Shown: positions 26,847 to 40,469, counted from the first letter of the stretch. The stretch is DNA of 64,000 nt from Candidatus Rifleibacteriota bacterium (GCA_015233565.1 JADFXM010000003.1:155063-219062), one strand, 5' to 3'. Numbers and translations: made by a program. Notes: a model not told the origin generated them from the letters alone.

Positions 26847-29024
26847 ATGGATCTTTCATATAAACTTCTCATGTATTTTTTAATCGCAAATGTTGCCTTT
26901 ATGATTTTTTCCCTGATCTCTAAAGGCGTCCGAGTTTATAAGGCTTATCTTTTCCAACTTTCTTTGGTTCTGTTTTTCATGTTGTTTTCGTTAAAATACG
27001 ATGAAGATGGTTCCAAATCAATACTTATTTCTGTTTTCCTGCTTTTTTTGTTTGTGATACTTCCCTATATTCTCCAAAAAAGAATTGAGCTTTTGCTTTT
27101 TGAACAACGTTTTGACGAACTTGAATGGCCGGCGAAGGTAAAATCTCTTCTTGCCTGGAGCGCGATGAACTACCATATTCTTGAGCTGGCACGAGCGGTT
27201 AAACCATTTAGTCTTGATCCTGCTGTTGCCGAGAAAAATATCCTATTACTCCTTGGACGCGGTGAGCCGTTTGAAAGTTTAACGCGAATTTGTCTTGCTC
27301 AGGTATATATTAATCAGAGGAAATTCCAGGGTATTATCGATTGCTTATTCCCTCCCAATGTGAAAATTAGTGAATTGTCTTCTGAAGAAATGATATTTAT
27401 CACTCGCAGTTTGCTTGAAACGGAAAGATTTGAACAAGCAATTGAACTTCAGATTGCGCTTGAAGAAAAAGTGCAAACTGAGACAAATAAATACTTTCTT
27501 GACAGTGTAGTTGTTTCAAGACTGCTTCTTTTTTCGTTTCTCGGTTGGAAAGAAGATTTTGAAAACCTTCTTAAACCTGGAAATCAGGATTTGCCTTCTT
27601 TGCCTCCATTGATAAAAGAATTCTGGAACGGTGTAACTCTTTATAATTCAGGGAAATGCGAAGAAGGTCTGGGAATCCTGCGAACGATATTAAATTCACA
27701 GGAACTTGAGTTCTTCCCTGAAAATTGGCAGGGAGGAATTCGTTCAAGATATGAAGAATTGAACCAACGTCATGAGCGATTCTTGAAAGAAGTTTTCCCT
27801 AAACTTGAAGAAATTAAACAAAAAAATCATACGATTTTTCTCGAAAAACTTCAAAAGTTCACTGTTCGAAAGGAACCTATAAAAGGTCCTGTTATTGCCA
27901 CTTATTCTTTGATTCTGCTTTTGTCTCTGAGTTTCGGAATTTCTCGAGCTATGGGAAATCTTTTTGATATCGGGGATTTAGTTACTTTTGGCGCTAACAA
28001 TGCAATTCTCGTAGAAAATGGCGACTACTTCAGACTTTTTTCTTGCCTTTTTTTGCACATGGGTTGGATTCACTTTTTGATGAATATTCTGGCTTTGTAC
28101 TACATTGGTCCTTCACTTGAAGCTCGAACCGGAACCAGCATTTTTCTGGGGATATTCCTGATTTCAGGATTATCCGGAAGCATTGCAACGGTCTATTTTC
28201 ATCCTGGAATCTCTGTAGGAGTTTCCGGGGCAATTCTTGGCCTGTTAACGGCTTCAGCTGCGCTTGAACTATTTCAGAAAAAAAAGCCCAGGATTCTGGG
28301 TCCTGGTAGCAAATTGTCAGCGCTATTTTTTATTATTTTCCTGAATATTCTTATTGGCTTCTTCGAAAAAGGTGTTGATAATAGCGCCCATATTGGTGGA
28401 ATGATTGGCGGATTCCTTTCAGGTTTGACAGCAAGAGTTTTTTTGAAATTTTCTATTTTACGATTATTTGCCAAATTGATCTCCTGGGTTGGATTTATAA
28501 TTGTTTTGTTCATTTTGTTATCAAGCATTTCCACAAGCAAGCTTGAACTACCTTATTTGTTTGGTGGAGGTTTTGAACGGAAAAATATTGAATCTCTCGG
28601 CTATAAACTCAAAGTTCCCCAGAGATGGCTCTTCCAGGAACCAACCAAAAAAGAGCCAGAAAAATTTTCTATGACGGGGCCTCTAGGTGAAAGAATGGAT
28701 TTCCTCCTGGGAGAATGGTATGAAAATGGGGATGTTCTGGCAAAGGAATATTCCGATAACAGAACCAAAGGAATTTTGAAAAATTCTGAGTTAGAACTGA
28801 AAGGCGTTTCTGATCCTGCTTCATTTTCAGATGGAATCTGGGAATGTTGGGGAATGAAATGGCGACTTGAAGCTTTTGGAAGGCCATTCGTCCAAAAGGA
28901 CTATATTTGTCTGGCATCACAAACAGTCCTTTTTGTGCAATGCCTTTTACCTACCGACCGGGATACCGTTTATGACAATTTCTTAAAAAATGTCATTGGC
29001 GCAATAAAGCCGCTTAAACCCTGA
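26847..29024 (+). CDS. Rhomboid-family intramembrane serine protease with long N-terminal (TM + helical-repeat) and C-terminal extensions
   Basis: The central region FLHMGWIHFLMNILALYYIGPSLE...GVSGAILGLL...AHIGGMIGGF contains the rhomboid HxxxN, GxSG (catalytic Ser) and H-x4-G motifs. Confidence 0.8.
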   Translation: MDLSYKLLMYFLIANVAFMIFSLISKGVRVYKAYLFQLSLVLFFMLFSLKYDEDGSKSILISVFLLFLFVILPYILQKRIELLLFEQRFDELEWPAKVKSLLAWSAMNYHILELARAVKPFSLDPAVAEKNILLLLGRGEPFESLTRICLAQVYINQRKFQGIIDCLFPPNVKISELSSEEMIFITRSLLETERFEQAIELQIALEEKVQTETNKYFLDSVVVSRLLLFSFLGWKEDFENLLKPGNQDLPSLPPLIKEFWNGVTLYNSGKCEEGLGILRTILNSQELEFFPENWQGGIRSRYEELNQRHERFLKEVFPKLEEIKQKNHTIFLEKLQKFTVRKEPIKGPVIATYSLILLLSLSFGISRAMGNLFDIGDLVTFGANNAILVENGDYFRLFSCLFLHMGWIHFLMNILALYYIGPSLEARTGTSIFLGIFLISGLSGSIATVYFHPGISVGVSGAILGLLTASAALELFQKKKPRILGPGSKLSALFFIIFLNILIGFFEKGVDNSAHIGGMIGGFLSGLTARVFLKFSILRLFAKLISWVGFIIVLFILLSSISTSKLELPYLFGGGFERKNIESLGYKLKVPQRWLFQEPTKKEPEKFSMTGPLGERMDFLLGEWYENGDVLAKEYSDNRTKGILKNSELELKGVSDPASFSDGIWECWGMKWRLEAFGRPFVQKDYICLASQTVLFVQCLLPTDRDTVYDNFLKNVIGAIKPLKP

Positions 29025-29042
29025 TGAAACAGAATCAAAAAA

Positions 29043-30062
29043 ATGGTTAAAGAACCTGAGAAGCTTGATAAAGTAGAAAAAATCAGCCGAATCTCTCTTA
29101 TCAATCTTAAACGTGAAATCGGAAAAGTCATAATTGGAAATGAGAACGTGATTGATCCGGTTCTGGTTTCCATCTTTGCCGGAGGACATGTGCTTTTGGA
29201 GGGTGTCCCCGGGCTAGGTAAAACTCTTTTGGTAAAAACCCTCTCAAGAATTCTTCAAATGAGCTTCAAAAGGATTCAATTTACCCCTGACCTCATGCCC
29301 GCTGATATTATTGGTACCCAAATAATTCAGGAAGATGAAAAGAATCGAAAAAGTTTCGTTTTCCAGGAGGGTCCGATTTTTTCGAATATTGTACTCGCTG
29401 ACGAAATTAATCGTGCGACTGCTAAGACTCAATCCGCTCTTCTTGAAGCGATGGCCGAAGGAACAGTCACATCCGGGAGCGAAACACATCTTCTTCCCAA
29501 GCCATTTTTTGTCCTAGCTACTCAAAATCCCATCGAAATGGAAGGGACTTACCCCTTACCTGAAGCTCAGTTAGACCGTTTCTTTTTCAAAGTTCTCATT
29601 GATTCTCCGACAAAAGAAATGCTGGAAAATATTCTTGAAAAGACCACTGGAAATGAAGAACCGGAACTATTGAAAATGTTGGGTGGCGGTGAGTTGCTCG
29701 AGGGCCGAAAAACAATCAGAGAAATTCCCATCGCGAAACATCTGCGGGAAGCAATTGCACAGCTTATTTCTTCCACTCATCCAAAAAACCAATCATCTCC
29801 CCCACAAATTAAACGTTATGTTGCATATGGCAGTTCGCCCCGGGGCCTTCAAGCAATAGCACTTGGCGCAAAATCCATGGCGTTCCTTCGTGGTCGGAAT
29901 CATGTTTCTTTTGAGGAGATTAAGCTTGTTTGTAAACCAGCCTTGAGGCATCGGTTAATCCTGAATTTCGAAGGTGAAGCAGAAGGAATTTCTGTGGATG
30001 AGATTATCGATAAACTGGTTTCCCAAATTGAATCCAGCCTGGTTATCGGGAAGCCGGCATGA
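29043..30062 (+). CDS. MoxR-family AAA+ ATPase
   Basis: Walker A GVPGLGKT, Walker B VLADEINRA, and ATQNPIEMEGTYPLPEAQLDRF, which is diagnostic of MoxR/RavA-type AAA_3. Confidence 0.9.
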   Translation: MVKEPEKLDKVEKISRISLINLKREIGKVIIGNENVIDPVLVSIFAGGHVLLEGVPGLGKTLLVKTLSRILQMSFKRIQFTPDLMPADIIGTQIIQEDEKNRKSFVFQEGPIFSNIVLADEINRATAKTQSALLEAMAEGTVTSGSETHLLPKPFFVLATQNPIEMEGTYPLPEAQLDRFFFKVLIDSPTKEMLENILEKTTGNEEPELLKMLGGGELLEGRKTIREIPIAKHLREAIAQLISSTHPKNQSSPPQIKRYVAYGSSPRGLQAIALGAKSMAFLRGRNHVSFEEIKLVCKPALRHRLILNFEGEAEGISVDEIIDKLVSQIESSLVIGKPA

Positions 30063-30225: not shown

Positions 30226-30813
30226 GTGATAAATCTAAATTCTGAAATTGACACTAATACGCTGAAGCGCTTAAACGTTCCATTATTCTTAATTATTTGT
30301 CTCTTTTTTTTTCAGGGAATTCCTAAGCCCGAGCCACCGACTGCTGAAGAGCTGGTCGAGGTTGCATTTGGACAGTTAATGATGGATAACGTTTATGCTG
30401 CCGAAAAATTGTATTGTCAGGCTTATGAATTGGATAAAAATAACCCTGAGGCGATCAAAGGGTTGGGAATGGTAGCCATAATTAGAGAAAATCCGGAAGA
30501 AGCTTTTCAATATTTTTCAGTGCTTGAAGGAATAAAAAAAAGTGGTTTTAAAGATTTTCTTGATATTGGGCTTTTATTCGAGAAGCAGAAAAAATTTGAT
30601 AAAGCCGAAGAATTGTACAACTATGTTTTAAAAAACTATTCTGATTGCTTTCCGGCTTCTTATCGTCTCGCAAAAGTGGAATCTGAAACTGGTAGAAATA
30701 GCCAGGCATTGTCTCGCCTGGAAGAACTATTAAAAAAAATGCCAGAGGGTTTTGAGAAAAGCCAAGCTTCCGCAGGTTTAACCTTTTTACGCTCACAAAC
30801 TGGAACTAAATAA
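30226..30813 (+). CDS. Membrane-anchored TPR-repeat protein
   Basis: N-terminal TM segment (VPLFLIICLFFFQG) followed by TPR-like repeats (AEKLYCQAYELDKNNPEAIKGLG..., AEELYNYVLKNY). GTG start. The TAATG junction with the next gene is a 1-nt overlap. Confidence 0.65.
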   Translation: MINLNSEIDTNTLKRLNVPLFLIICLFFFQGIPKPEPPTAEELVEVAFGQLMMDNVYAAEKLYCQAYELDKNNPEAIKGLGMVAIIRENPEEAFQYFSVLEGIKKSGFKDFLDIGLLFEKQKKFDKAEELYNYVLKNYSDCFPASYRLAKVESETGRNSQALSRLEELLKKMPEGFEKSQASAGLTFLRSQTGTK

Positions 30814-32792
30814 TGTCAATTTCACCAAATGCACAAATGACAATCGATACCCAAATTACAGAGACTTCAAAACAGGATTTGCCAAGAGTTCTGGGAATTT
30901 CAGCTGTCAAAAATAAATTCCTGGGAATTCTTGCGTCGCTTCCTGATTTTCTTCTATTGCTCACGATTTTTCTTCCAATGATATTCCGTGAAAATGAAAT
31001 CGACGATTATCCCAGGCTTTGTACTGAATATTATTCTTTGTTTTTTGGAATGTTTTTTATTATTTCAGTTCAACTTCAGAATTTTTTTTCAGGTAGAAGC
31101 CTTTTTTCAGGAGCTTCATATTCCAAAACACGGATTTTTGTTATTCTTTTCTTTGTCTATTTGTTCTTTAATAGTTTCATGGCTTTTAATCCACTTCCGG
31201 CCCGGAAGCATCTTGCAGCAGTTTTGGGATTTTTCTTAATTGCCCAGAGTTTCCTTGACTGGCTTGAGTTTTCGCCCAAAAAGTTAAATAGAGCCATTTT
31301 TTTCATTGGTTTTGCCGTGGCATTTCAATTAGGAGTTGGATGCTTCGAATACAATGGTATTCCAAAACCGGTTGACCGGGAATATTCCAGTAAAGATTTG
31401 ATTTCTCCGGTGGGAGGTTTTTTTTCCACGAGGGCTTGGGGTTTTATTTGCTCGATTAAACCCGCTTCAGGATCAAAAGATAAAATATACGGGACCTTTA
31501 ACAATCAGAATTTTTTTGCAGAGTTTCTAATTTTAACTGTCCCACTAGTTGTTTTTTCGTTGTTTACTCAATCTAGAATTTTATATCGCTTGGCAATCTT
31601 CCTGTTTCTAATTCCTATGCAGGTTTTTCTTTACTATATTAACTGTCGCGCAGCCTGGATTGGATTGATTTCTGCTGGTGTGGCTGTGTTATTAACATTT
31701 AAATCTAAGTTAAGTAATTCAAGAAAATCACTTTTCCTTTTATTTTGCGTAATCTCAGTTTCCATAGCACTTTTGGCTTCTTATTTTTTCATTTTCTCAT
31801 CTCCTCAAAAACTTGCGGAGGACCCAAATATCGAAGGACGCCTCAGCAATTGGAAAGTTGCATTCCAGCTATGGCTTGATCATCCGATTTTCGGTTGTGG
31901 GTTGGGAAATTATAAATTGGTATCTGAAGATAAGGTAAGATCTCAGGTAAAGAGTGGAAAACTTCCGAAAATTTTTTCGGTTGCCCGATTTTTTCAAGTT
32001 CATAACGAGGTATTGCAAGCATTCGTTGAATTTGGCTTAATTGGCGGAATACTTATTTTTCTTGCTTTCGGGCTTTGGACTTACGAAACATTTCACAACC
32101 AATCATTGGAAGAGTATAAAAAAATTGGACTTTTTTGGGGAATTTTTGGCACGGTAATTGCCGGACAATTTGGATTCCCATTTCACATTTCTTCCACGGT
32201 ACTTTTTTTGCTTTTGTTCATTTGCATTGGCATTTCAAACAGTGAAAGAAAGCAAATTGAGCCCAATAGCGATAAAAAATCCATTTTTGTAATTAACTTT
32301 TTATCTATAATTTTACTGGTACTTGTTCTTGGAACGACATTTTTCCGTTCGATTTACCCGGTCTACCTTGGGGGATTGTATGAACGTCCAACTCCTTTTT
32401 TGGTTGAAAAACATCACTATGAGTGCGCGGAAAAAGCTATAGTTTTAGCGGATAGATTCATTAGATATAGAGGTGATTTAAGAATTGCTCTTCTCGAGTG
32501 TTTTGTTCATTTAGGAAAATTTCGCGAGGCGGCAATTCTATTTGAATTAAGTAAAAAGGAGGGTTTGCCTATTAATTCATTTTTTTGGGTGGCGACTTCG
32601 TATGCTTTGCTTGGCCGCTTTTTTGAATCTGCATTTTATTTTTGTGAGTTAATGAAATTTTATGACGACCAATCAAAACTTGCTGAAACGGTTGCTCGGG
32701 TTTCTCCTAAATTGGAATTTAATTTTGAATTACCTACTATTATTGAAAACTTGAATTACATAGGTTTTCTAAAACTTTTGAGATTGTTTTGA
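30813..32792 (+). CDS. Wzy_C (O-antigen ligase / PglL-PilO-like) polytopic membrane protein with C-terminal helical-repeat domain
   Basis: Multi-TM protein with FFQVHNEVLQAFVEFGLIGGILIF, the H-N-x-x-L-x-x-x-x-E-x-G-x-x-G loop motif of the Wzy_C family. Confidence 0.75.
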   Translation: MSISPNAQMTIDTQITETSKQDLPRVLGISAVKNKFLGILASLPDFLLLLTIFLPMIFRENEIDDYPRLCTEYYSLFFGMFFIISVQLQNFFSGRSLFSGASYSKTRIFVILFFVYLFFNSFMAFNPLPARKHLAAVLGFFLIAQSFLDWLEFSPKKLNRAIFFIGFAVAFQLGVGCFEYNGIPKPVDREYSSKDLISPVGGFFSTRAWGFICSIKPASGSKDKIYGTFNNQNFFAEFLILTVPLVVFSLFTQSRILYRLAIFLFLIPMQVFLYYINCRAAWIGLISAGVAVLLTFKSKLSNSRKSLFLLFCVISVSIALLASYFFIFSSPQKLAEDPNIEGRLSNWKVAFQLWLDHPIFGCGLGNYKLVSEDKVRSQVKSGKLPKIFSVARFFQVHNEVLQAFVEFGLIGGILIFLAFGLWTYETFHNQSLEEYKKIGLFWGIFGTVIAGQFGFPFHISSTVLFLLLFICIGISNSERKQIEPNSDKKSIFVINFLSIILLVLVLGTTFFRSIYPVYLGGLYERPTPFLVEKHHYECAEKAIVLADRFIRYRGDLRIALLECFVHLGKFREAAILFELSKKEGLPINSFFWVATSYALLGRFFESAFYFCELMKFYDDQSKLAETVARVSPKLEFNFELPTIIENLNYIGFLKLLRLF

Positions 32793-32803
32793 GATAAAAA
32801 AAA

Positions 32804-34465
32804 ATGCCTGAAAGACTTCTGATTGTTGGGTTGTTAATTGGAGTTGCATTTTTCTTTCCAAGTTTTCTGATTGCATTTCTTGAATCAAAAGAAGCTTTTT
32901 TAGCTGTTTTTTCTTTTGTTATTCTACTCAGGTTGTTTTTTTTACCTTCAATTAAGATAAAAAAGAATTTCTTTTTTCCTGTTTTTGTAATTTTTCTGGT
33001 TTCATTGGTTTTTTTTCTTCACCAACGCTTGGCAGGAAGTTTTATTTCGCTCAATTTTTATTATATTGCATTGTTCATGTTTGTTTTGATTTTGTTAAAC
33101 CAAGCTGAAAATCTAAACCCAGATGATGATTCCAGGCTTTTTGTTATTTTCTATAGCTTTTTTGTGATTCTGGGTCTTTTGGAATTCTTTGGTGTCACAT
33201 TATTTAATCATCCATTTCAGGGAACGACGCTTTTTGGAAACACCGAATTCTTTTCCTCTTTCTTTTCTCCCTTGTCAGTAATAGTTATTCCATTTTATCT
33301 CGCTTCCTCTAAAAATGGAAAATTGCTTTCCCTTTCATTATTAATAACTTCGGTTTTCTTTTATTTCTTACTTGGAAGCAGAATCGGCTTCATTTCAATG
33401 TTTTGTGGCTATCTTGTTTTTTTCATTGCCGGGGGAATTTCCCTTGATTTTGAAACCAAGAAATCATTAAAAAAACTGTTTTTAGTGTTTGGGATTTCTT
33501 TCTTTTTAGCAATTCTAGTTATCCCTAAGCTGACTTCCCACAGCAATGTAATCGAAAAATCTTTTCAGGAAGGGGGAAGCCAAAATATCCAAGTAAGGTT
33601 TGTTTTTTGGAAATTTGCTTTTGAAATGTTCCTCCAAAACCCGATTCTGGGCGTTTCTCCAGAAGGATTCAGATTTAATTACCCTTCGTTTCTTGACAAA
33701 TTTTTAAGCTTGAACCCTGACAAAAAGACATTGTTTGAATCAGGGGTTGCTGGAAATGTCCATTGCGAGCCACTTCAATTTTTAACTGAATATGGATTTC
33801 TAGTTTTTGTGCTTGTCTTTTTCTTGATTTTTAGAGGAATAATAAGATCCTTCAAGTTGCTTCAAAAAGCAACAAATGAAGAAAAAATCCGAGGTGTTGC
33901 TTCTTTCTCTATTATTATTTCTTTTTTCATCAATTCTCTTACCGGTCCGTCCTTTCATCTTTTTCCTACGACATTGTTAACCTTTTTCCTAGCTTACCGG
34001 TTTTTTAAAGACGAAGAAATAGAAATTCAACTTCCCCTGGATAAAAAATATTTAAGAATTTTGTTCTTTCTAATCGGATTGATTATTTCCGGGCAAATAT
34101 TTCTTTATTCGCTTTCTTCGCATTATTTCTACTTAGGGAGCTTTGAAAATGATTTTGCTTCAAGGGAAATTCTTTTTAAAAGAGCCCTGGACCTTAAACC
34201 GTTTGAACCCAGATATAGCGATGCCTTAGCCAACTTATACCTTGACCAGGGAAAACTGGATTTAGCTGCTGATAATTTAAGCTCAGCTTTGAAATTTTCA
34301 AATAACCCTGGTTTACTATTTACACTTGGAAGACTTAAGTTTGAGCAAAAAGATTATCGCGAAGCAACAAAAGCTTTTATTATTTTTTCACGATTGCAAC
34401 CGAATTCTAGTCTTGCGGAAAATTATCTGACCGAGATTCTGAAAAGAACTGGTCCTGCAAAATGA
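32804..34465 (+). CDS. Wzy_C (O-antigen ligase / PglL-PilO-like) polytopic membrane protein with C-terminal TPR domain
   Basis: Multi-TM protein with the Wzy_C-like loop GNVHCEPLQFLTEYGFLVF and C-terminal TPR-like repeats (ALANLYLDQGKLDLA..., FEQKDYREATKAF). Confidence 0.7.
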   Translation: MPERLLIVGLLIGVAFFFPSFLIAFLESKEAFLAVFSFVILLRLFFLPSIKIKKNFFFPVFVIFLVSLVFFLHQRLAGSFISLNFYYIALFMFVLILLNQAENLNPDDDSRLFVIFYSFFVILGLLEFFGVTLFNHPFQGTTLFGNTEFFSSFFSPLSVIVIPFYLASSKNGKLLSLSLLITSVFFYFLLGSRIGFISMFCGYLVFFIAGGISLDFETKKSLKKLFLVFGISFFLAILVIPKLTSHSNVIEKSFQEGGSQNIQVRFVFWKFAFEMFLQNPILGVSPEGFRFNYPSFLDKFLSLNPDKKTLFESGVAGNVHCEPLQFLTEYGFLVFVLVFFLIFRGIIRSFKLLQKATNEEKIRGVASFSIIISFFINSLTGPSFHLFPTTLLTFFLAYRFFKDEEIEIQLPLDKKYLRILFFLIGLIISGQIFLYSLSSHYFYLGSFENDFASREILFKRALDLKPFEPRYSDALANLYLDQGKLDLAADNLSSALKFSNNPGLLFTLGRLKFEQKDYREATKAFIIFSRLQPNSSLAENYLTEILKRTGPAK

Positions 34466-34532: not shown

Positions 34533-35405
34533 CTACCACTGATACCAATAAGAAGTTGTTACTGTTGCTGGAACGATATTTCCTGGTGAAGCAGCTAATA
34601 AATAACTTCCAAATTGGCTCCAGTGCTGAAGTGATTGCATCGCGCAGGAAGCAGCCACACCGGTGGATTCAGTCCAGGCTGATGGAAAAATGCCGGTTGC
34701 TGGGATACCGTTGATTTCAGCCCATTTTTCGATCATTACGTTGTCTAATAACCCGGTTCCGGTGGTCGAAAAAGACATTTCCAAGTCAGTCGCTCCAATA
34801 AGGGTAAAATATTGGGAAAAGCGGCACCATTCCGTGGAAGTCGAATGTATTTCTGCCAAGGGAGTCGGATCAAATTTTTTTGTTACTTTGGCAATGAACT
34901 CGTTGGTCGAAGTCCCTTTAAACCAATAGCTGAGGACATAGGTAGCAGGAGGTATCGGAAATAACGAAACGTATTGAGAAATTGCAGATTGAGTGACTAA
35001 CCACCCGTCTGGAATTCCATTTCCGGCAGTATAATCTCCTTGGTTTTTGTAGTCGAACCCTACATCTGTTTCAAGGCTCGGGTTTTTTACACAATTTATT
35101 ACTGTCCTCCAATTGAAAGGGAAATCCAATGAATTGAAGTTTGCTGAAGCACGGGGATACCTGCAAAGGGCAACAGTTGCAAGATTTGTAATTAAGTTTG
35201 AGGAATCTTGGTCGCTGAGTTTATCGGGATAACTTGCTAAAGCAGTTTTAATTCCACTTCTGAGATTATTAAGGTCTTCCTGTAGAATTTTTTCCTGAAG
35301 CCGTTTTTGAATGTTGGATTCATCAGGAAGAGAGAGCATTGCTTCAAGTACTAGAATACCGAAAAAAATGATCAGCAAAAAAATAATATTTCCCTTGCGA
35401 TTCAT
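34533..35405 (-). CDS. Signal-anchored secreted protein with C-terminal beta-sandwich (CBM/jelly-roll-like) region; function unknown
   Basis: 290-aa ORF with the N-terminal hydrophobic helix NIIFLLIIFFGILVL and then a pseudopilin-like helix (LNNLRSGIKTALASY). The C-terminal pattern YVLSYWFKG...EWCRFSQYF...LEMSF is reminiscent of carbohydrate-binding jelly-rolls. It is divergent from the pilin array. Confidence 0.5.
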   Translation of the reverse strand: MNRKGNIIFLLIIFFGILVLEAMLSLPDESNIQKRLQEKILQEDLNNLRSGIKTALASYPDKLSDQDSSNLITNLATVALCRYPRASANFNSLDFPFNWRTVINCVKNPSLETDVGFDYKNQGDYTAGNGIPDGWLVTQSAISQYVSLFPIPPATYVLSYWFKGTSTNEFIAKVTKKFDPTPLAEIHSTSTEWCRFSQYFTLIGATDLEMSFSTTGTGLLDNVMIEKWAEINGIPATGIFPSAWTESTGVAASCAMQSLQHWSQFGSYLLAASPGNIVPATVTTSYWYQW

Positions 35406-35422
35406 ATTCGCTTATTATATAT
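35394..35422 (+). promoter_or_regulatory. Sigma-70-type promoter of pilin gene A (-35 TTGCGA, 17-nt spacer, -10 TATATT)
   Basis: TTGCGA at 35394-35399 and TATATT at 35417-35422. The same hexamers with the same spacing precede copies B and C. The -35 element overlaps the first codons of the divergent gene. Confidence 0.5.
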
Positions 35423-35469
35423 TATCTGTGGGAGTTTGTGAATTTTTTAATCCCCCAAGGGAGGAAAAT

Positions 35470-36312
35470 ATGAATTTCTTGTCGAGAAAGCGCGGCTTTA
35501 CACTATTGGAGTTATTGATAGTCGTGGCGATTATCGCAGTTTTGATTGCTTTAGCTTTGCCGTTTTACCAAGATTATATTACAAAATCTAAATATACTGC
35601 TGCTCTGGCTGACTTGTCAAACATTCGCAAAGCAGTTCAGATGTATGAGCAGGTAGAACAAAGCTCATTGACAGTCTTCGATTTGCGGCCTCTGATCGGT
35701 GACTATCTCGAAGACTTCAGAAAAAGCGATTTGACTCAGACAACTCCGCGTGATCCCTATGGAAATGACTATTCCTTTAATCCTGAACGCGGTCTTCTAA
35801 TCTCTTATGGCCCGAACCATATGTGTGAAATGACAACAGCTGACTTGAAAGCAAGACGAGCTACCGGAGACGACATCTGTGTGACATATCTTCCGCCGTT
35901 TTATTTAATGAGGGTTTCTACTTTGAATAACCGCGAACTTGAACTTGAATTTTCTAGAAGAGTTAATGATAGTCTTATCAGCTCTGGGATGTTCGGATTT
36001 TATGTTCTTGACACTACCACTGGACAACCCAAAAATCCGGCTACAGGTGCAAACTTTAGTGGAAATGCTGAGATTTATCGAATTTCTTCGACAGTTTATC
36101 GTCTTCGATTTCAAGATGCTGACAAGCTTCAATCGGGTGCCTATTATCGCGCCTATGCGAATGGTGTAAAATCCCAAGGGGGAAGAAATCTTACAAGCGA
36201 CCCTGGAACTGTTGGAAACTGTGATGCTGACGACCGACCAGGAAGCGAAACAAAAACTAGCATGAACACAAATAATGGCGCTTGGCTTGATTTCAGCGCG
36301 CCTGCTTCATAA
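35470..36312 (+). CDS. Prepilin-type protein A: GspG-like pseudopilin/type IV pilin core + ~130-aa C-terminal Ig-like extension
   Basis: Class III signal KRG|FTLLELLIVVAIIAVLIALALP (Gly-1, Phe+1, Glu+5) and a GspG-like core ...PRDPYGNDYSF...ISYGPN. GGGAGG Shine-Dalgarno before the ATG at 35470; the track ORF is over-extended to 35311. The protein ends ...DFSAPAS. Confidence 0.85.
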   Translation: MNFLSRKRGFTLLELLIVVAIIAVLIALALPFYQDYITKSKYTAALADLSNIRKAVQMYEQVEQSSLTVFDLRPLIGDYLEDFRKSDLTQTTPRDPYGNDYSFNPERGLLISYGPNHMCEMTTADLKARRATGDDICVTYLPPFYLMRVSTLNNRELELEFSRRVNDSLISSGMFGFYVLDTTTGQPKNPATGANFSGNAEIYRISSTVYRLRFQDADKLQSGAYYRAYANGVKSQGGRNLTSDPGTVGNCDADDRPGSETKTSMNTNNGAWLDFSAPAS

Positions 36313-36326
36313 TTGAAAAAAAATTG

Positions 36327-36351
36327 GCCCTCCATAAAGGAGGGCTTTTTT
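36327..36351 (+). terminator. Intrinsic terminator after pilin gene A
   Basis: GCCCTCC (36327-36333), loop ATAAA, GGAGGGC (36339-36345), then TTTTTT. Confidence 0.8.
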
Positions 36352-36391
36352 GCTTTTAGGAAAAAAAATCTTCTTAAATAATAATTTTCCC

Positions 36392-36420
36392 TTGCGATTC
36401 ATAATTGTTTGCTATATATT
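36392..36420 (+). promoter_or_regulatory. Sigma-70-type promoter of pilin gene B
   Basis: TTGCGA at 36392-36397, 17-nt spacer, TATATT at 36415-36420, inside the conserved repeat. Confidence 0.5.
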
Positions 36421-36465
36421 TCTTATAGAGTAAATTAGCTTTCTTAATCTCCAAGGGGGGAATAC

Positions 36466-37308
36466 ATGAAACATTTTTTGAATAAACGCGGCTTTACACT
36501 ACTTGAATTGTTGATTGTCGTTGCGATTATCGCTGTACTGATTGCTTTGGCATTGCCCTATTATCAAGATTATATCGAAAAATCAAAATATTCCGGTACT
36601 CTTGCAGATTTGTCGAACCTTCGCAAAGCTGTTCAAATGTATGAACAGATGGAATCGAAATCTCTTAGTACTTTTGATATGAGACCTCTTATCGGTAGAT
36701 ATATCGAAGATTTTCGAAAAAATGACCTTACCCAGACTACTCCCCGGGACCCCTATGGTAACGATTATTCCTTCAACCCAATGTACGGAATTATCTTTTC
36801 CTACGGTCCGAATCATATTGCAGATATGAATAACGCTGCTATGAAGGCGAGATATGCAACTGGTGACGATATAATAACTACCTTTCTCCCCCCATTTTTT
36901 TTGAAGAGGGCGATTGCACTTGATAATAAAGAAGTTGAAGTGGAATTTTCTCGGAAAGTAAACGAGTCTACTGTCATACCAACAACATTCTATTGGCATA
37001 AAGATCAGACATGGACTCACAATGGCGGAACTGCAGTGGGAGCAGGAAATGGTAAATGTGGGGATAACGCAGGTGGTTCTCCGACTGTAACAAAAATTTC
37101 CCCAACCGTTTTTCGTTTCCGTTTTGATGACAATAATTTGCTAACAGCGGGCTCATACTATTGTCTCTATATTTCTGGAATTTCATCAGCACAAGGGCGC
37201 TATATGGGAGCCACCGAATGTGATGACCGCCCGGGACTTGAAGCCAGCAGCGATATCGGTGGTGGAACCAACAGCGGTTGTTGGCGCGAATTTACCATGC
37301 CTGATTAA
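36466..37308 (+). CDS. Prepilin-type protein B (paralogue of A)
   Basis: KRG|FTLLELLIVVAIIAVLIALALP and PRDPYGNDYSF. The N-terminal ~165 aa are highly similar to A and C while the C-terminal extension diverges. The protein ends ...EFTMPD. Confidence 0.85.
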   Translation: MKHFLNKRGFTLLELLIVVAIIAVLIALALPYYQDYIEKSKYSGTLADLSNLRKAVQMYEQMESKSLSTFDMRPLIGRYIEDFRKNDLTQTTPRDPYGNDYSFNPMYGIIFSYGPNHIADMNNAAMKARYATGDDIITTFLPPFFLKRAIALDNKEVEVEFSRKVNESTVIPTTFYWHKDQTWTHNGGTAVGAGNGKCGDNAGGSPTVTKISPTVFRFRFDDNNLLTAGSYYCLYISGISSAQGRYMGATECDDRPGLEASSDIGGGTNSGCWREFTMPD

Positions 37309-37333
37309 TTCTTTTTCATAAAATCTTTTGATG

Positions 37334-37355
37334 CCCTCCTTTTGGAGGGTTTTTT
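37334..37355 (+). terminator. Intrinsic terminator after pilin gene B
   Basis: CCCTCC (37334-37339), loop TTTT, GGAGGG (37344-37349), then TTTTTT. Confidence 0.8.
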
Positions 37356-37412
37356 GATTTCGAAAAAAAATGAAAACAATGCAAAATCACTTCAAAAAAA
37401 TTAATATTTCCC

Positions 37413-37441
37413 TTGCGATTCATAATTGTTTGCTATATATT
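37413..37441 (+). promoter_or_regulatory. Sigma-70-type promoter of pilin gene C
   Basis: TTGCGA at 37413-37418, 17-nt spacer, TATATT at 37436-37441, inside the conserved repeat. Confidence 0.5.
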
Positions 37442-37488
37442 TCTTAATAGTGGGAATTACCTTTCTTAATCTCCATCGGGGGGGAAAT

Positions 37489-38307
37489 ATGAAACATCGT
37501 TTGAATAAACGCGGCTTTACGCTTCTTGAGTTGCTGATTGTCGTTGCAATTATCGCAGTTTTGATTGCTTTGGCCTTGCCGTTTTACCAAGACTATATTG
37601 AAAAATCCAAATATACTGCTACTTTGGCTGATTTGTCGAGTCTTCGAAAAGCTGTACAAATGTATGAGCAAGTTGAACAAGCCTCTCTCACTCTTTCTGA
37701 TTTGAGACCCTTGATTGGTAAATACATAGAAGATTTCCGAAAAAATAATCTACTCCAATTATTACCACGTGATGCATACGGAAATGATTATTCAATAAAT
37801 CCGACATATGGTTTGATAATATCTTATGGTCCTGATCATAAATTGAATATGACTGCCTCTGATTGGAAAGCAAGACGATCTAGAGGTGATGACCTTGTAA
37901 CCGCTTATCTTCCTCCATTTTATTTGATGAGGGTTTCCCCTTTGAACAGGCGCGAATTTGAGGTCGAGTTCTCTCGCAAAATTCTTACCTCTTCCATTTC
38001 AACGACCAATTTTTATTGGTTACATTGGGGAACTCACACCATTGTTAATGCGGGTGATGCAACTGAACGCCCTGATGGTCGACTTTTCAGGATTTCTCCG
38101 ACTATCTTCCGTTTCCGTTTTACCAGTGATACTGGCTCTCTCACTGCGGGAGGAGACTACCGCCTTTACGTAGATGGAATTAGTGCTCAAACAGGCCGAA
38201 GCCTGTCGACTGCCGATTCTGATGACCAACCTGGATATGAATCGTCAAGTAGTGGGGGTGGTTCAAACAGCGGTTGCTGGGTTGATTTCAGTGTTCCGGC
38301 TTCATAA
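37489..38307 (+). CDS. Prepilin-type protein C (paralogue of A/B)
   Basis: KRG|FTLLELLIVVAIIAVLIALALP and PRDAYGNDYSI. ATG at 37489, preceded by a G7 Shine-Dalgarno tract; the track ORF is over-extended to 37426. The protein ends ...DFSVPAS. Confidence 0.85.
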   Translation: MKHRLNKRGFTLLELLIVVAIIAVLIALALPFYQDYIEKSKYTATLADLSSLRKAVQMYEQVEQASLTLSDLRPLIGKYIEDFRKNNLLQLLPRDAYGNDYSINPTYGLIISYGPDHKLNMTASDWKARRSRGDDLVTAYLPPFYLMRVSPLNRREFEVEFSRKILTSSISTTNFYWLHWGTHTIVNAGDATERPDGRLFRISPTIFRFRFTSDTGSLTAGGDYRLYVDGISAQTGRSLSTADSDDQPGYESSSSGGGSNSGCWVDFSVPAS

Positions 38308-38323
38308 TTTCAAATGTCCAATC

Positions 38324-38349
38324 GCCCCCATTTTGGGGGCTTTTCTTTT
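38324..38349 (+). terminator. Intrinsic terminator after pilin gene C
   Basis: GCCCCC (38324-38329), loop ATTTT, GGGGGC (38335-38340), then TTTTCTTTT. Confidence 0.75.
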
Positions 38350-38360
38350 ATTTTCCAATT

Positions 38361-38882
38361 ATGAGTTTTAATTCAAAACCGCATTCAATTCAAGCTGGAT
38401 TGACCCTTCTTGAAGTCATTTTTGCCACTGCACTTCTTTTGGTTTTTTCGCTCGTGATTTTCACTCCGCAGGAGATAATCCAACGAAGGCAAGCGGAATA
38501 TGAATTGAAAACAGCGCTCCACGATATGAGGGGGGCACTAGACCAATTCTACCTTGATCGGGGAGAGAGGGCCACTTCAATATATTCTTTGATGACTATT
38601 CCCAGAAAAGATGGCGGGGGTTTTTATTTGCGAAATTTTCCCCTTAACCCTTTTACGGCAAGCACCCAATGGTCAATCCGGGCTACTGATGCCGATGAGG
38701 CTGCAACAATTGACTTGGGTTGGACATTCATTTGCTCTCCCCAAGCCACTTTACCTCTTGATGCGGGAATTATTAACATTCGTGTACCAAGTATCCCTGC
38801 GACCACCCTTTCTGGGGTAGCATCCTGCGTTTTTGACGACAATTTTGTAAGCCTGAATGGAATTCCTTATTATAAGTGGTAG
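38361..38882 (+). CDS. Prepilin-type N-terminal cleavage/methylation-domain protein (minor pseudopilin-like)
   Basis: QAG|LTLLEVIFATALLLVF (Gly-1, Glu+5) followed by a helix ending ...ALDQFYLDRGE, as in GspG/H-type pseudopilins. Confidence 0.7.
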   Translation: MSFNSKPHSIQAGLTLLEVIFATALLLVFSLVIFTPQEIIQRRQAEYELKTALHDMRGALDQFYLDRGERATSIYSLMTIPRKDGGGFYLRNFPLNPFTASTQWSIRATDADEAATIDLGWTFICSPQATLPLDAGIINIRVPSIPATTLSGVASCVFDDNFVSLNGIPYYKW

Positions 38883-38911: not shown

Positions 38912-39101
38912 ATGATATTCACCGCAGTTGTTGATAAATGTTCCGAAACAGGCCTTTATATTGGTTATGTACCAGGTTTTCCAGGGGCGCATTCCAGTTG
39001 GTAGAACCTTAGATGAACTCAACGAAAATTTGAAAGAGGTCATTGAAATGCTTATTTCTTTCCCCAGATGGCGTATTGATCGCCACTTGTCAGAAGCTTG
39101 A
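38912..39101 (+). pseudogene. HicB-like (UPF0150) antitoxin-family gene interrupted by a +1 frameshift
   Basis: Frame 1 reads MIFTAVVDKCSETGLYIGYVPGFPGAHSSW* with its stop at 39002-39004. The next frame continues PVGRTLDELNENLKEVIEML... Joined, these match the conserved family pattern ...PG.H..G.TLDE...NLKE.IE. One extra T near 38991-38995 would explain the shift. The 3' end overlaps the convergent amylase gene. Confidence 0.5.
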
Positions 39102-40329
39102 ATGAAGAGTCGGGACACCAGTCGGCGGAACCAAGTTTGATCGCTATTTTTTCATCAATGAAAGCTGCATATAGCCCTTGGTCGGCTTTTTCGATTCTAA
39201 GTGAGCTGTCGGCTTTAATTCCATAGTTTTGCCTGATCGCCATCAATGTTTTAATGGTCTCCATTAGTTTCCAATCGTAAATATGTTCCCATAATACACA
39301 GGGAATTCCAGGGTGAGTCATAATGTAGGCATATCCCTGACAGACTTTATCGGCGGGAAAAGGCCACAAATTTTGTTGCGACCCGGTGTCGTGATTGTCG
39401 ATGAAAGTCACAGCTCGCTGAGGGTTCCAACCGATTAACCCGGGTGCTTTCCCTTGCTGGTCGCGAAGTCGCCAATATTCACCTTTTACCGCTTCTTGAA
39501 GGATTCCTTTAGTGGTAACGTCGAAAACCGTTACGTTTCCTGCTGCCCCATTAAGGTAGTCGCAGAGCACTTGGCGATGTGCATCTTGATTGTATTGAGG
39601 TTTGCTTTGATCATAGGCCATGTTCGTAAATACCTCGGCCACTGAAAATTGTGAGTCTGTACCTTTGTCAAAAATTGTGACAAATTTCGGAGCGTAGCCT
39701 TTGGCGAAGTCATATCGCCATCCGACAAAACCAAGTGTTTTAAGCCAGTTAAGATATGCAATTATATCTTGTTGAATGTTCGGGTTTGTATGATCAATGT
39801 CTGGGGCTGCTTCAAAATTATCACCTGTGTCGGGGTTGCCGGTTCCTCCAAATTCTCCCTTTACTATTGCGGATTGATTCCATGCTGCTTTTCCGCTGGG
39901 GAAAATAAACTGATTCCAAAGCCCGCTACAGTCCTGCTTCCCGGCACAACGATGGTTTAAGACTGCATCGGCAAGAGGTTTGATGCCCGCTTTGTTCATC
40001 TTATCCAGGGTAGCCTTTAATTGATCTGCTGTCCCGTAAAATGTTGGATTCTGTTGAGTTCCTAAATCGTAATAATCGCCAGGTAAATATCCTGGGTCGT
40101 CGACCGATCTGCTCGGAGGAGGAAACCACGCGAGCGTGAACCCCATTTTGCCAAGCTCTTCAGCATGCTCAGCAATTAAGTTATACCAATTTCCAGGGGA
40201 TCCTGCATTTTTCAGCTTCCACCCAAATACTTGGATCATTATTTCGGTGTTTGAACGTGTTCGGGCGGAAATAGCAAGACTTAAAGTCAGAAAAAATAAA
40301 ACAAAAAATGAAACAAATATTTTTTTCAT
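39052..40329 (-). CDS. Secreted GH13 alpha-amylase (plant/archaeal-like subfamily)
   Basis: GH13 conserved regions DAVLNHR (I), GWRYDFAKGY (II), AEVF (III) and FIDNHDTGS (IV). Signal peptide MKKIFVSFFVLFFLTLSLAISA from the ATG at 40329; the track start is 40368. Confidence 0.85.
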   Translation of the reverse strand: MKKIFVSFFVLFFLTLSLAISARTRSNTEIMIQVFGWKLKNAGSPGNWYNLIAEHAEELGKMGFTLAWFPPPSRSVDDPGYLPGDYYDLGTQQNPTFYGTADQLKATLDKMNKAGIKPLADAVLNHRCAGKQDCSGLWNQFIFPSGKAAWNQSAIVKGEFGGTGNPDTGDNFEAAPDIDHTNPNIQQDIIAYLNWLKTLGFVGWRYDFAKGYAPKFVTIFDKGTDSQFSVAEVFTNMAYDQSKPQYNQDAHRQVLCDYLNGAAGNVTVFDVTTKGILQEAVKGEYWRLRDQQGKAPGLIGWNPQRAVTFIDNHDTGSQQNLWPFPADKVCQGYAYIMTHPGIPCVLWEHIYDWKLMETIKTLMAIRQNYGIKADSSLRIEKADQGLYAAFIDEKIAIKLGSADWCPDSSFKLLTSGDQYAIWGKK

Positions 40330-40469
40330 GTTAATCCCTTTCTTGAAGGCCTTTTGGGAAAATGCCAATCATGCCAATAATTAAAATATAGCAAAATTTA
40401 TAGGTTTGATCAAGCCTCTGGTGTTGTAAACCGTCTAATATATTAAGTAATTATTTCGTGGGATTGATA

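Follow-up and report, generated by a model that had tools for sequence, protein, structure and literature searches.

What kind of structure is built from three consecutive pilin genes, each encoding a GspG-like pilin with a large C-terminal extension, is the question raised by a locus of Candidatus Rifleibacteriota bacterium (GCA_015233565.1 JADFXM010000003.1:155063-219062). The stretch analyzed, hereafter the window, comprises 64,000 nt, and all coordinates given below refer to the whole of it. An original prediction, made from the sequence of the window, had described three tandem prepilin units, each with its own promoter, Shine-Dalgarno sequence and terminator, and this layout is borne out by the open reading frames (ORFs), the repeats and the positions of the motifs. 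Our favoured answer, drawn from sequence and held with a probability of about 0.6, is that the three products (pilins A, B and C) serve as alternative major subunits in a type IV filament that is peculiar to Riflebacteria and displays Big_5-like Ig domains.

Architecture of the tandem pilins

The region consists of three direct repeat units with a spacing of 996 and 1023 nt, each holding one plus-strand ORF for a prepilin of 272-280 amino acids (aa), namely pilin A (35470-36312, 280 aa), pilin B (36466-37308, 280 aa, with four Cys in the extension) and pilin C (37489-38307, 272 aa). Given the inferred cleavage at Gly9, the mature form of pilin A comprises ~271 aa, which are made up of helix alpha1, a GspG-like head and a Big_5-like Ig domain.

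All three copies start with a prepilin signal of the form M..(K/R)KRG|FTLLELLIVVAIIAVLIALALP. Taking as a class III signal a short basic leader up to a Gly, followed by Phe or Met, ~20 hydrophobic residues and a Glu at +5, we find such a signal in every copy, and all three exceed the cutoffs of Pfam N_methyl (PF07963; 32.6-34.1 bits versus 21.2) and TIGR02532 (32.5 bits versus 16.3). Sequence matches to pilins in the Protein Data Bank (PDB) span alpha1. In the N-terminal half, residues 8-104 match GspG models with scores below the curated cutoffs, and the head carries the GspG-like motifs PRDP(Y/W)GNDY ... GPN ... GDDI. Two relatives of the window pilins, P0005 (23.0) and P0008 (21.1), exceed the Pfam T2SSG cutoff of 21. 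In the AlphaFold2 (AF2) model, which was computed from an 11-sequence alignment and is of moderate confidence (pLDDT 75.7), a helix at residues 12-62 is followed by short head strands at residues 102-139, corresponding to the long helix and beta-head of a pilin.

The same model places a beta-sandwich after a PPF linker (strands 146-153, 156-161, 175-180, 200-204, 209-214, 225-230, 233-235 and 271-276); eight beta-strands were counted in the model, seven of them beyond residue 145. Using Foldseek against the PDB, the top matches were the Ig-like domains of the S-layer proteins SbsC and SbsB (E = 4e-5, ~99 columns, rmsd ~2.2 A). Both the GspG-like prepilin module and a folded, not disordered, extension, as originally proposed, are therefore supported by the profile matches and the predicted structure.

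None of the three extensions has a Pfam match even at E <= 10, so that there is no direct match to Big_5 (PF13205). When 1.84 billion representatives were searched with a profile built from the extension, 151 matches were obtained, which fall into ~20 pilin-sized proteins with the domain at the C-terminus and ~130 giant multi-repeat surface proteins, the latter being reached at E-values down to 1e-22. In 6/6 of the giant proteins that were scanned, the repeats are Pfam Big_5 (E 1e-12 to 1e-35). Membership in Big_5 is thus not obtained from Pfam directly but through profile homology and a shared fold, and on these grounds the extension is a divergent Big_5-type Ig-like domain of ~135 aa. Compared with the remaining family, the extensions of the window copies and of P0002, the single pilin of the metagenome-assembled genome (MAG) GCA_015232575.1, contain two lineage-specific insertions, i.e., a variable patch and a Ser/Gly-rich loop before the last strand. 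Since a short linker connects their pilin module to an additional module of a kind not restricted to pili, the window proteins fit the definition of modular pilins (PMC8179133).

Divergence of the copies and their expression signals

Pairwise amino-acid identity between A, B and C is 58-62%. By the Nei-Gojobori method, the proportion of synonymous differences (pS) is 0.72-0.75 and hence saturated, nonsynonymous divergence (dN) is 0.32-0.38, and the whole-gene ratio to synonymous divergence (dN/dS) is ~0.11-0.13; the first 35 codons are synonymously less diverged (pS 0.49-0.58). Along the protein the divergence is graded, with its minimum in helix alpha1 and extreme values at residues ~166-205. 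In copy A numbering, pairwise identity amounts to 83-94% for residues 1-35, 71-89% for residues 36-105 and just 46-54% for residues 106-140, and the description of the first ~165 residues as nearly identical was therefore overstated.

The existence of a hypervariable patch at residues ~165-205 is confirmed. It corresponds to residues 166-202 of pilin A (35965-36075), where it takes in a low-confidence loop of the model, to residues 166-208 of pilin B (36961-37089) and to residues 166-199 of pilin C (37984-38085), all on the plus strand. Within alignment columns 166-209, 2/44 positions are invariant and 17 columns are gapped, as opposed to 37/106 invariant positions in the remainder of the extension (Fisher p = 6e-5). 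The divergence is thus concentrated and not uniform. A second variable stretch is found at residues ~233-257 of copy A, and the low-confidence AF2 loops of the extension (190-194, 244-249 and 257-268) lie within or adjoin the two variable stretches. All four framework motifs attributed to the extension, LE(L/V)EFSR, RIS(S/P)T..R.RF, DD(R/Q)PG and N(N/S)G(A/C)W, were found in the copies.

With regard to selection along the gene, the whole-gene ratio could be obtained, but most individual segments are saturated in dS and locally uninformative, so that positive selection in the patch is neither shown nor excluded. The antigenic diversification put forward in the original prediction cannot be shown on this basis. 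No switching mechanism was seen.

In a neighbour-joining analysis, P0002 nests within A/B/C, with bootstrap values of 0.5% for A/B/C monophyly and 75% for C+P0002, and pilin C is the nearest of the trio to P0002. This nesting indicates that the triplication is older than the corresponding species split. Judged from the sequences, A, B and C are ancient paralogues under purifying selection; a recent duplication or an assembly artefact was considered and is ruled out by the pS values and by the 58-62% identity.

Each unit has expression signals of its own on the plus strand. A promoter-like block of the form TTGCGA-17-TATATT precedes pilin A (35395-35423, overlapping the first codons of a divergent gene for a 290 aa protein), pilin B (36392-36420) and pilin C (37413-37441). 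The block (CCTTGCGAT ... TATATATT) is conserved in all three units as well as upstream of the orthologous pilin of another species (the P0002 locus, L001), and, because synonymous sites within the genes are saturated, its conservation is attributable to selection and not to recency. The Shine-Dalgarno sequences of all three genes are strong (GGGAGG/GGGGGG), and each gene is followed by a terminator-like GC-rich hairpin of 7-8 bp with a T-run (36326-36346 after A, 37333-37350 after B and 38324-38340 after C). These signals support the view that the pilin genes are independent transcription units. As to the conserved 5' untranslated region (5'UTR) that had also been proposed, good conservation holds for copies B and C (83%) and does not extend to the trio as a whole.

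The blocks before B and C additionally hold, at 36398-36415 and 37419-37436 in minus-strand sense, the reverse complement of ATG AAT CGC AAG GGA AA, a detail that had escaped the original prediction. The sequence corresponds to the beginning of the 290 aa gene (MNRKG...), relics of whose 5' end were therefore brought along in the duplication; the relic before B lies within the promoter-like block on the opposite strand.

Two further regulatory features were considered and set aside. In 4/4 5'UTRs (the window trio and L001) a CUCC/CCCC tract can pair with the G-run of the Shine-Dalgarno sequence to form a mini-hairpin of 4-5 bp (35450-35466, 36447-36462 and 37469-37486; ~9982-9995 in L001), the predicted stability of which is no better than that of shuffled controls. 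Sigma-54 promoters are frequent on pilin genes; inspection by eye revealed no GG at -24 upstream of TTGC, and the sigma-70-like reading was kept.

Assembly machinery of relatives and a proposed filament

In agreement with the original prediction, no assembly ATPase, platform protein, secretin or prepilin peptidase was found among the window genes. The pilin family has ~20 relatives, and all that could be placed belong to the Riflebacteria. The majority adjoin a PilB/M/N/O/P/C-like operon, accompanied by a secretin, a short minor pilin and a pilin-like protein of ~300 aa. At L002, L003/L004, L091 and L092, the pilin module adjoins genes for a T2SSE ATPase, a PilM-like protein, three small proteins and T2SSF; a HEAT-repeat protein is encoded at L003/L004, L091 and L092 and a secretin at L003, L091 and L092. 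The PilM_2/FtsA-like gene, with a weak match to PilM_2, and the three small genes lie between the ATPase and the platform gene, and no family matches to GspC, GspL or GspM were recorded in the relatives' operons, which accordingly do not qualify as gsp operons. At each of these loci the machinery-linked family member is the sole canonical G|FTLLE pilin besides a short minor pilin. The associated ATPase forms a clade of at least 40 clusters, every named one of which is from Riflebacteria or Ozemobacteraceae, with an internal identity of 47-91% as compared to <=46% for the next relatives.

The genome with the closest pilin, GCA_015232575.1, encodes the pilin, its partner genes and the machinery at three separate loci, i.e., an E-M-N-O-P-F operon without adjacent pilin, a partner locus with genes for 291 aa and 164 aa proteins that is syntenic with the window's downstream genes, and L001, where the pilin gene is found directly 3' of two Wzy_C genes. 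A dedicated operon for assembly thus exists at an unlinked locus of the closest related genome, and because pilin and machinery are unlinked there as well, their separation in the window is uninformative. As read from these genomes, machinery unlinked from the pilin is the norm for the low-GC sublineage. A profile search of the genome contigs with the family alignment returned generic betaproteobacterial GspG matches (residues 6-105) and no close relatives.

Among the relatives, L086, located on another metagenome contig, carries an independent two-copy tandem of family pilins (P0010 and P0011), both of which have Ala at position -1 of the prepilin cleavage site, as opposed to the near-universal Gly. 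In addition, giant fn3/Ig-repeat proteins of 1,500 to 3,300 aa adjoin the pilin module at L091 (20599-21749), L092 (19641-21734) and L003 (2-4531), and might be cargo or partners of the pilus.

In the model that we favour, a prepilin peptidase would cleave after Gly9, and a PilB/PilM/PilN/PilO/PilP/PilC-like machine and its secretin, for which the genes would lie at other sites of the genome, would polymerise the subunits via alpha1, leaving the Ig-like domain of each subunit displayed on the exterior of the fibre. Two further pilin-like proteins of the window, a 173 aa minor pilin and a 290 aa protein that lacks Glu5 and resembles a carbohydrate-binding module (CBM) protein, would be likely priming or tip subunits. 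Three copies would let the cell build fibres with different surfaces, either as separate fibres or as mixed polymers, a notion that follows from the age of the paralogues, their purifying selection, their individual promoters and terminators and the fact that two loops differ most. The benefit may lie in binding different ligands or in escape from phage or grazers. A more far-reaching version, which we regard as tentative and rather less probable than not, holds that every subunit with its appended Ig-like domain contributes to a thick, possibly glycosylated, S-layer-like sheathed fibre converging on archaeal pili, the sheath of which could be changed or mixed by means of the paralogues.

Several points weigh against alternative major subunits of a type IV filament. 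With Pfam T2SSG (PF08334), two window copies score 16.8 and 16.9 bits versus the cutoff of 21, copy B has no match at all, and with TIGR01710 the window copies score ~44 bits versus a cutoff of 88.85; their extension, too, is without a direct Pfam match. The bulky modular pilins characterised so far are minor and probably tip-located (PMC8179133), and an extra domain on every subunit would presumably render the fibre thick for a secretin channel. As regards a possible glycosylation of the pilins, the two Wzy_C genes upstream of the trio border a large glycan cluster and could equally encode an O-antigen ligase or polymerase serving lipopolysaccharide (LPS) or capsule; their products exceed TfpO in size, and copy B does not end in Ser.

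For modular pilins bearing a grafted module, a location mostly at the tip has been proposed (PMC8179133), and the architecture seen here, a pilin module with a short linker and an extra domain, is the same; accordingly, A, B and C could be low-abundance minor pilins acting as tip adhesins, as Streptococcus sanguinis PilB/PilC, with an undetected small pilin forming the body. We consider this unlikely, since the five machinery-linked or pilin loci scanned contain no other canonical pilin gene, the only conserved G|FTLLE pilin of the cluster being that of this family; moreover, the Glu5-less CBM-like protein already suits a tip role, and strong transcription units with individual terminators are what major pilin genes typically show. 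A further possibility is that no surface fibre is formed and that the three proteins act as the major pseudopilins in a type II secretion-like system, building a short periplasmic piston that expels exoproteins. The GspG-like head, the secretin and GspE/PulE-family ATPase accompanying the relatives and the alpha-amylase gene nearby in two genomes would fit such a system. What makes it improbable in our view are the scores under the GspG cutoffs, the relatives' operon with its separate PilM/N/O/P-like genes and no recorded GspC, L or M family match, and the presence of three divergent paralogues, which is unexpected for a periplasmic piston; the Ig-like domain, the diversifying loops and the possible link to glycosylation would also be better suited to an exposed surface.

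The remaining explanations concern the reason for there being three copies. An antigenic or phase-variation device, in which a single copy is expressed at a time or variable cassettes are swapped by recombination, would account for the separate promoters and the variable surface patch, and occasional gene conversion could explain why pS is lower over the first 35 codons. Yet every copy is a complete gene, the promoters are nearly identical, no common cassette structure can be detected in the variable regions, and synonymous saturation indicates long independent evolution. Models of an invertible promoter or of silent cassettes were examined and rejected, as neither an invertible element, flanking inverted or other supporting repeats, nor a recombinase was found in the window, and a switching device is hence very unlikely. 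Least credible of all is the retention of functionally redundant copies for dosage alone: promoters and alpha1 are near-identical, as dosage would predict, but the proteins diverge by 38-42% in amino acids, with length-variable loops and differing Cys content and C-termini, and the paralogues predate a species split.

Among known systems, modular pilins form a well-established, varied class comprising 264 architectures, most of them believed to be located at the tip (PMC8179133), and the window pilins share with S. sanguinis PilB/PilC and CofB of enterotoxigenic Escherichia coli (ETEC) the succession of a pilin module, a short linker and an extra folded display module (PMC8179133). They differ from these in their Pfam-invisible Big_5-like Ig module, in being the apparent principal pilin and not a rare subunit of the tip, and in the presence of three diverged paralogues. 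With GspG (PF08334, TIGR01710) they have alpha1 and the head motifs in common over the matching residues 8-104, but they are twice the size and score below the cutoffs, and the machinery of their relatives is PilM/N/O/P-like and not of the GspC/L/M type.

Solved major pilins of type IVa pili comprise 111-161 aa, the 208 aa PilA of Myxococcus xanthus being the largest solved (PMC11046646). PilA offers a parallel as a large major pilin, the extra globular mass of which alters fibre properties (PMC11046646), whereas the window pilins reach 263-271 aa after the inferred cleavage and carry their extra mass as a discrete C-terminal domain and not as an enlarged head. Archaeal pilins and archaellins all carry Ig-like outer domains on the alpha-helix of every subunit, and are often glycosylated and encoded by multiple paralogues (PMC10334743). 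There, the Ig-like fold replaces the head; here, a GspG-like head is retained with the Ig-like domain appended, and the machinery is bacterial with a secretin.

In the literature searched, we did not find a description of the combination suggested by the present sequences, i.e., a GspG-like pilin with a Big_5 domain as phylum-specific principal pilin, in three paralogues and with linkage to Wzy_C genes. If they are bulk subunits, pilins of 263-271 aa would exceed any structurally characterised bacterial major pilin, extend the range of size and architecture of bacterial type IV pili and challenge the view of bulky modular pilins as tip-only (PMC8179133), and would raise the structural question of how a fibre with an extra domain per subunit passes through a secretin. 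The components encountered, comprising the pilin, the short minor pilin, the CBM-like tip candidate, a PilBMNOPC-like operon, the HEAT protein and the secretin, would define a pilus system for an uncultivated phylum.

Neighbouring genes and possible glycosylation

The two additional pilin-like genes flanking the trio had been absent from the original prediction. Downstream, the 173 aa minor pilin with the N-terminal motif AG|LTLLEV (38361-38882, plus strand) is a partner gene conserved downstream of the pilin in Riflebacteria loci, with 58% identity to L093_164 and 33% to L092_148. Its gene, which begins 20 nt past the pilin C terminator, lacks an obvious Shine-Dalgarno sequence; this suggests low read-through expression as compared to the major pilins. 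Upstream, the 290 aa protein is encoded divergently from pilin A (34533-35405, minus strand) and has a prepilin-like N-terminus, RKG|N, without Glu5, the absence of which is a GspK-like trait. It belongs to a family with an (R/K)xG|(N/Y) N-terminus and a conserved ...WYQW C-terminus that is found beside the pilin across Riflebacteria. One homologue exceeds the Pfam CBM_4_9 cutoff (27.9 versus 25.9), and the central domains are homologous; an AF2 model of the 290 aa protein from a three-sequence alignment was unusable (pLDDT 38.2). From its sequence relationships, this CBM-like protein is a candidate tip or adhesin subunit. Homologues of both partners adjoin a family pilin at L003/L004, L091 and L092, while L002 has a ~300 aa homologue and a short pilin-like ORF, and L089 a short N_methyl protein.

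The 5' side of the pilin region is occupied by genes for a 195 aa tetratricopeptide repeat (TPR) protein (30226-30813), a 659 aa Wzy_C membrane protein (30813-32792) and a 553 aa Wzy_C (O-antigen-ligase family) membrane protein with C-terminal TPR (32804-34465), all on the plus strand. The Wzy_C domains score 50.7 and 70.5 bits versus a cutoff of 31.7. This TPR/Wzy_C/Wzy_C/pilin neighbourhood is conserved in the sister genome, where the pilin of L001 is accompanied by orthologues of the TPR and of both Wzy_C proteins (41-50% identity) as well as of PMT_2 (57%), and has remained with the Wzy_C genes although its minor-pilin partners are 300 kb away. A Pfam scan of the Wzy_C proteins gave no match to PglL_A, the match to TIGR03097 is weak, and a PDB sequence search with both proteins gave either no match or matches to TPR alone.

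Wzy_C is present in all known pilin O-oligosaccharyltransferases (TfpO, TfpM, PglL and PglS), of which TfpO and TfpM target the C-terminal Ser or Thr of pilins (PMC9829042). Pilins A and C and P0002 end in ...PAS, and pilin B ends in ...MPD. By analogy, the two adjacent Wzy_C enzymes may O-glycosylate the pilins, candidate sites being the Ser at the C-terminus of A and C and, in the Ig-like domain, the Ser/Gly-rich loop that precedes the last strand; we put this forward as a weaker inference than the assignment of the pilins themselves. The likeness to TfpO, TfpM and PglL (PMC9829042) lies in Wzy_C membrane proteins encoded beside a pilin and, for A and C, in the terminal Ser; the differences are that two enzymes are present here, that they are larger (553 and 659 aa), one of them with TPR, and lack a PglL_A signature, and that B ends in Asp. 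The linkage of pilin and Wzy_C genes, together with a C-terminal Ser on 2/3 of the paralogues, could serve as a natural experiment on pilin glycosylation.

Further observations concern the surroundings of the locus, for which an Rfam scan and a tRNA scan of the window were both empty. In both low-GC Riflebacteria genomes, an alpha-amylase gene is found close to the module of the pilin or minor pilin (window 39052-40368, minus strand; L093 4032-5342), which may be plain synteny or a hint of polysaccharide use. Just 5' of the TPR/Wzy_C genes, a 725 aa rhomboid-domain protein and a MoxR-type AAA ATPase are encoded at 26847-30062 (plus strand). Positions 1-26600 of the window are taken up by a glycan-biosynthesis cluster of the nonulosonic-acid type, mostly on the minus strand, with genes for NeuB, two CTP_transf_3 cytidylyltransferases, several aminotransferases, an LIC12162-family transferase, an ABC-2 exporter pair and at least six radical SAM enzymes, two of them with SPASM and one being B12-binding.

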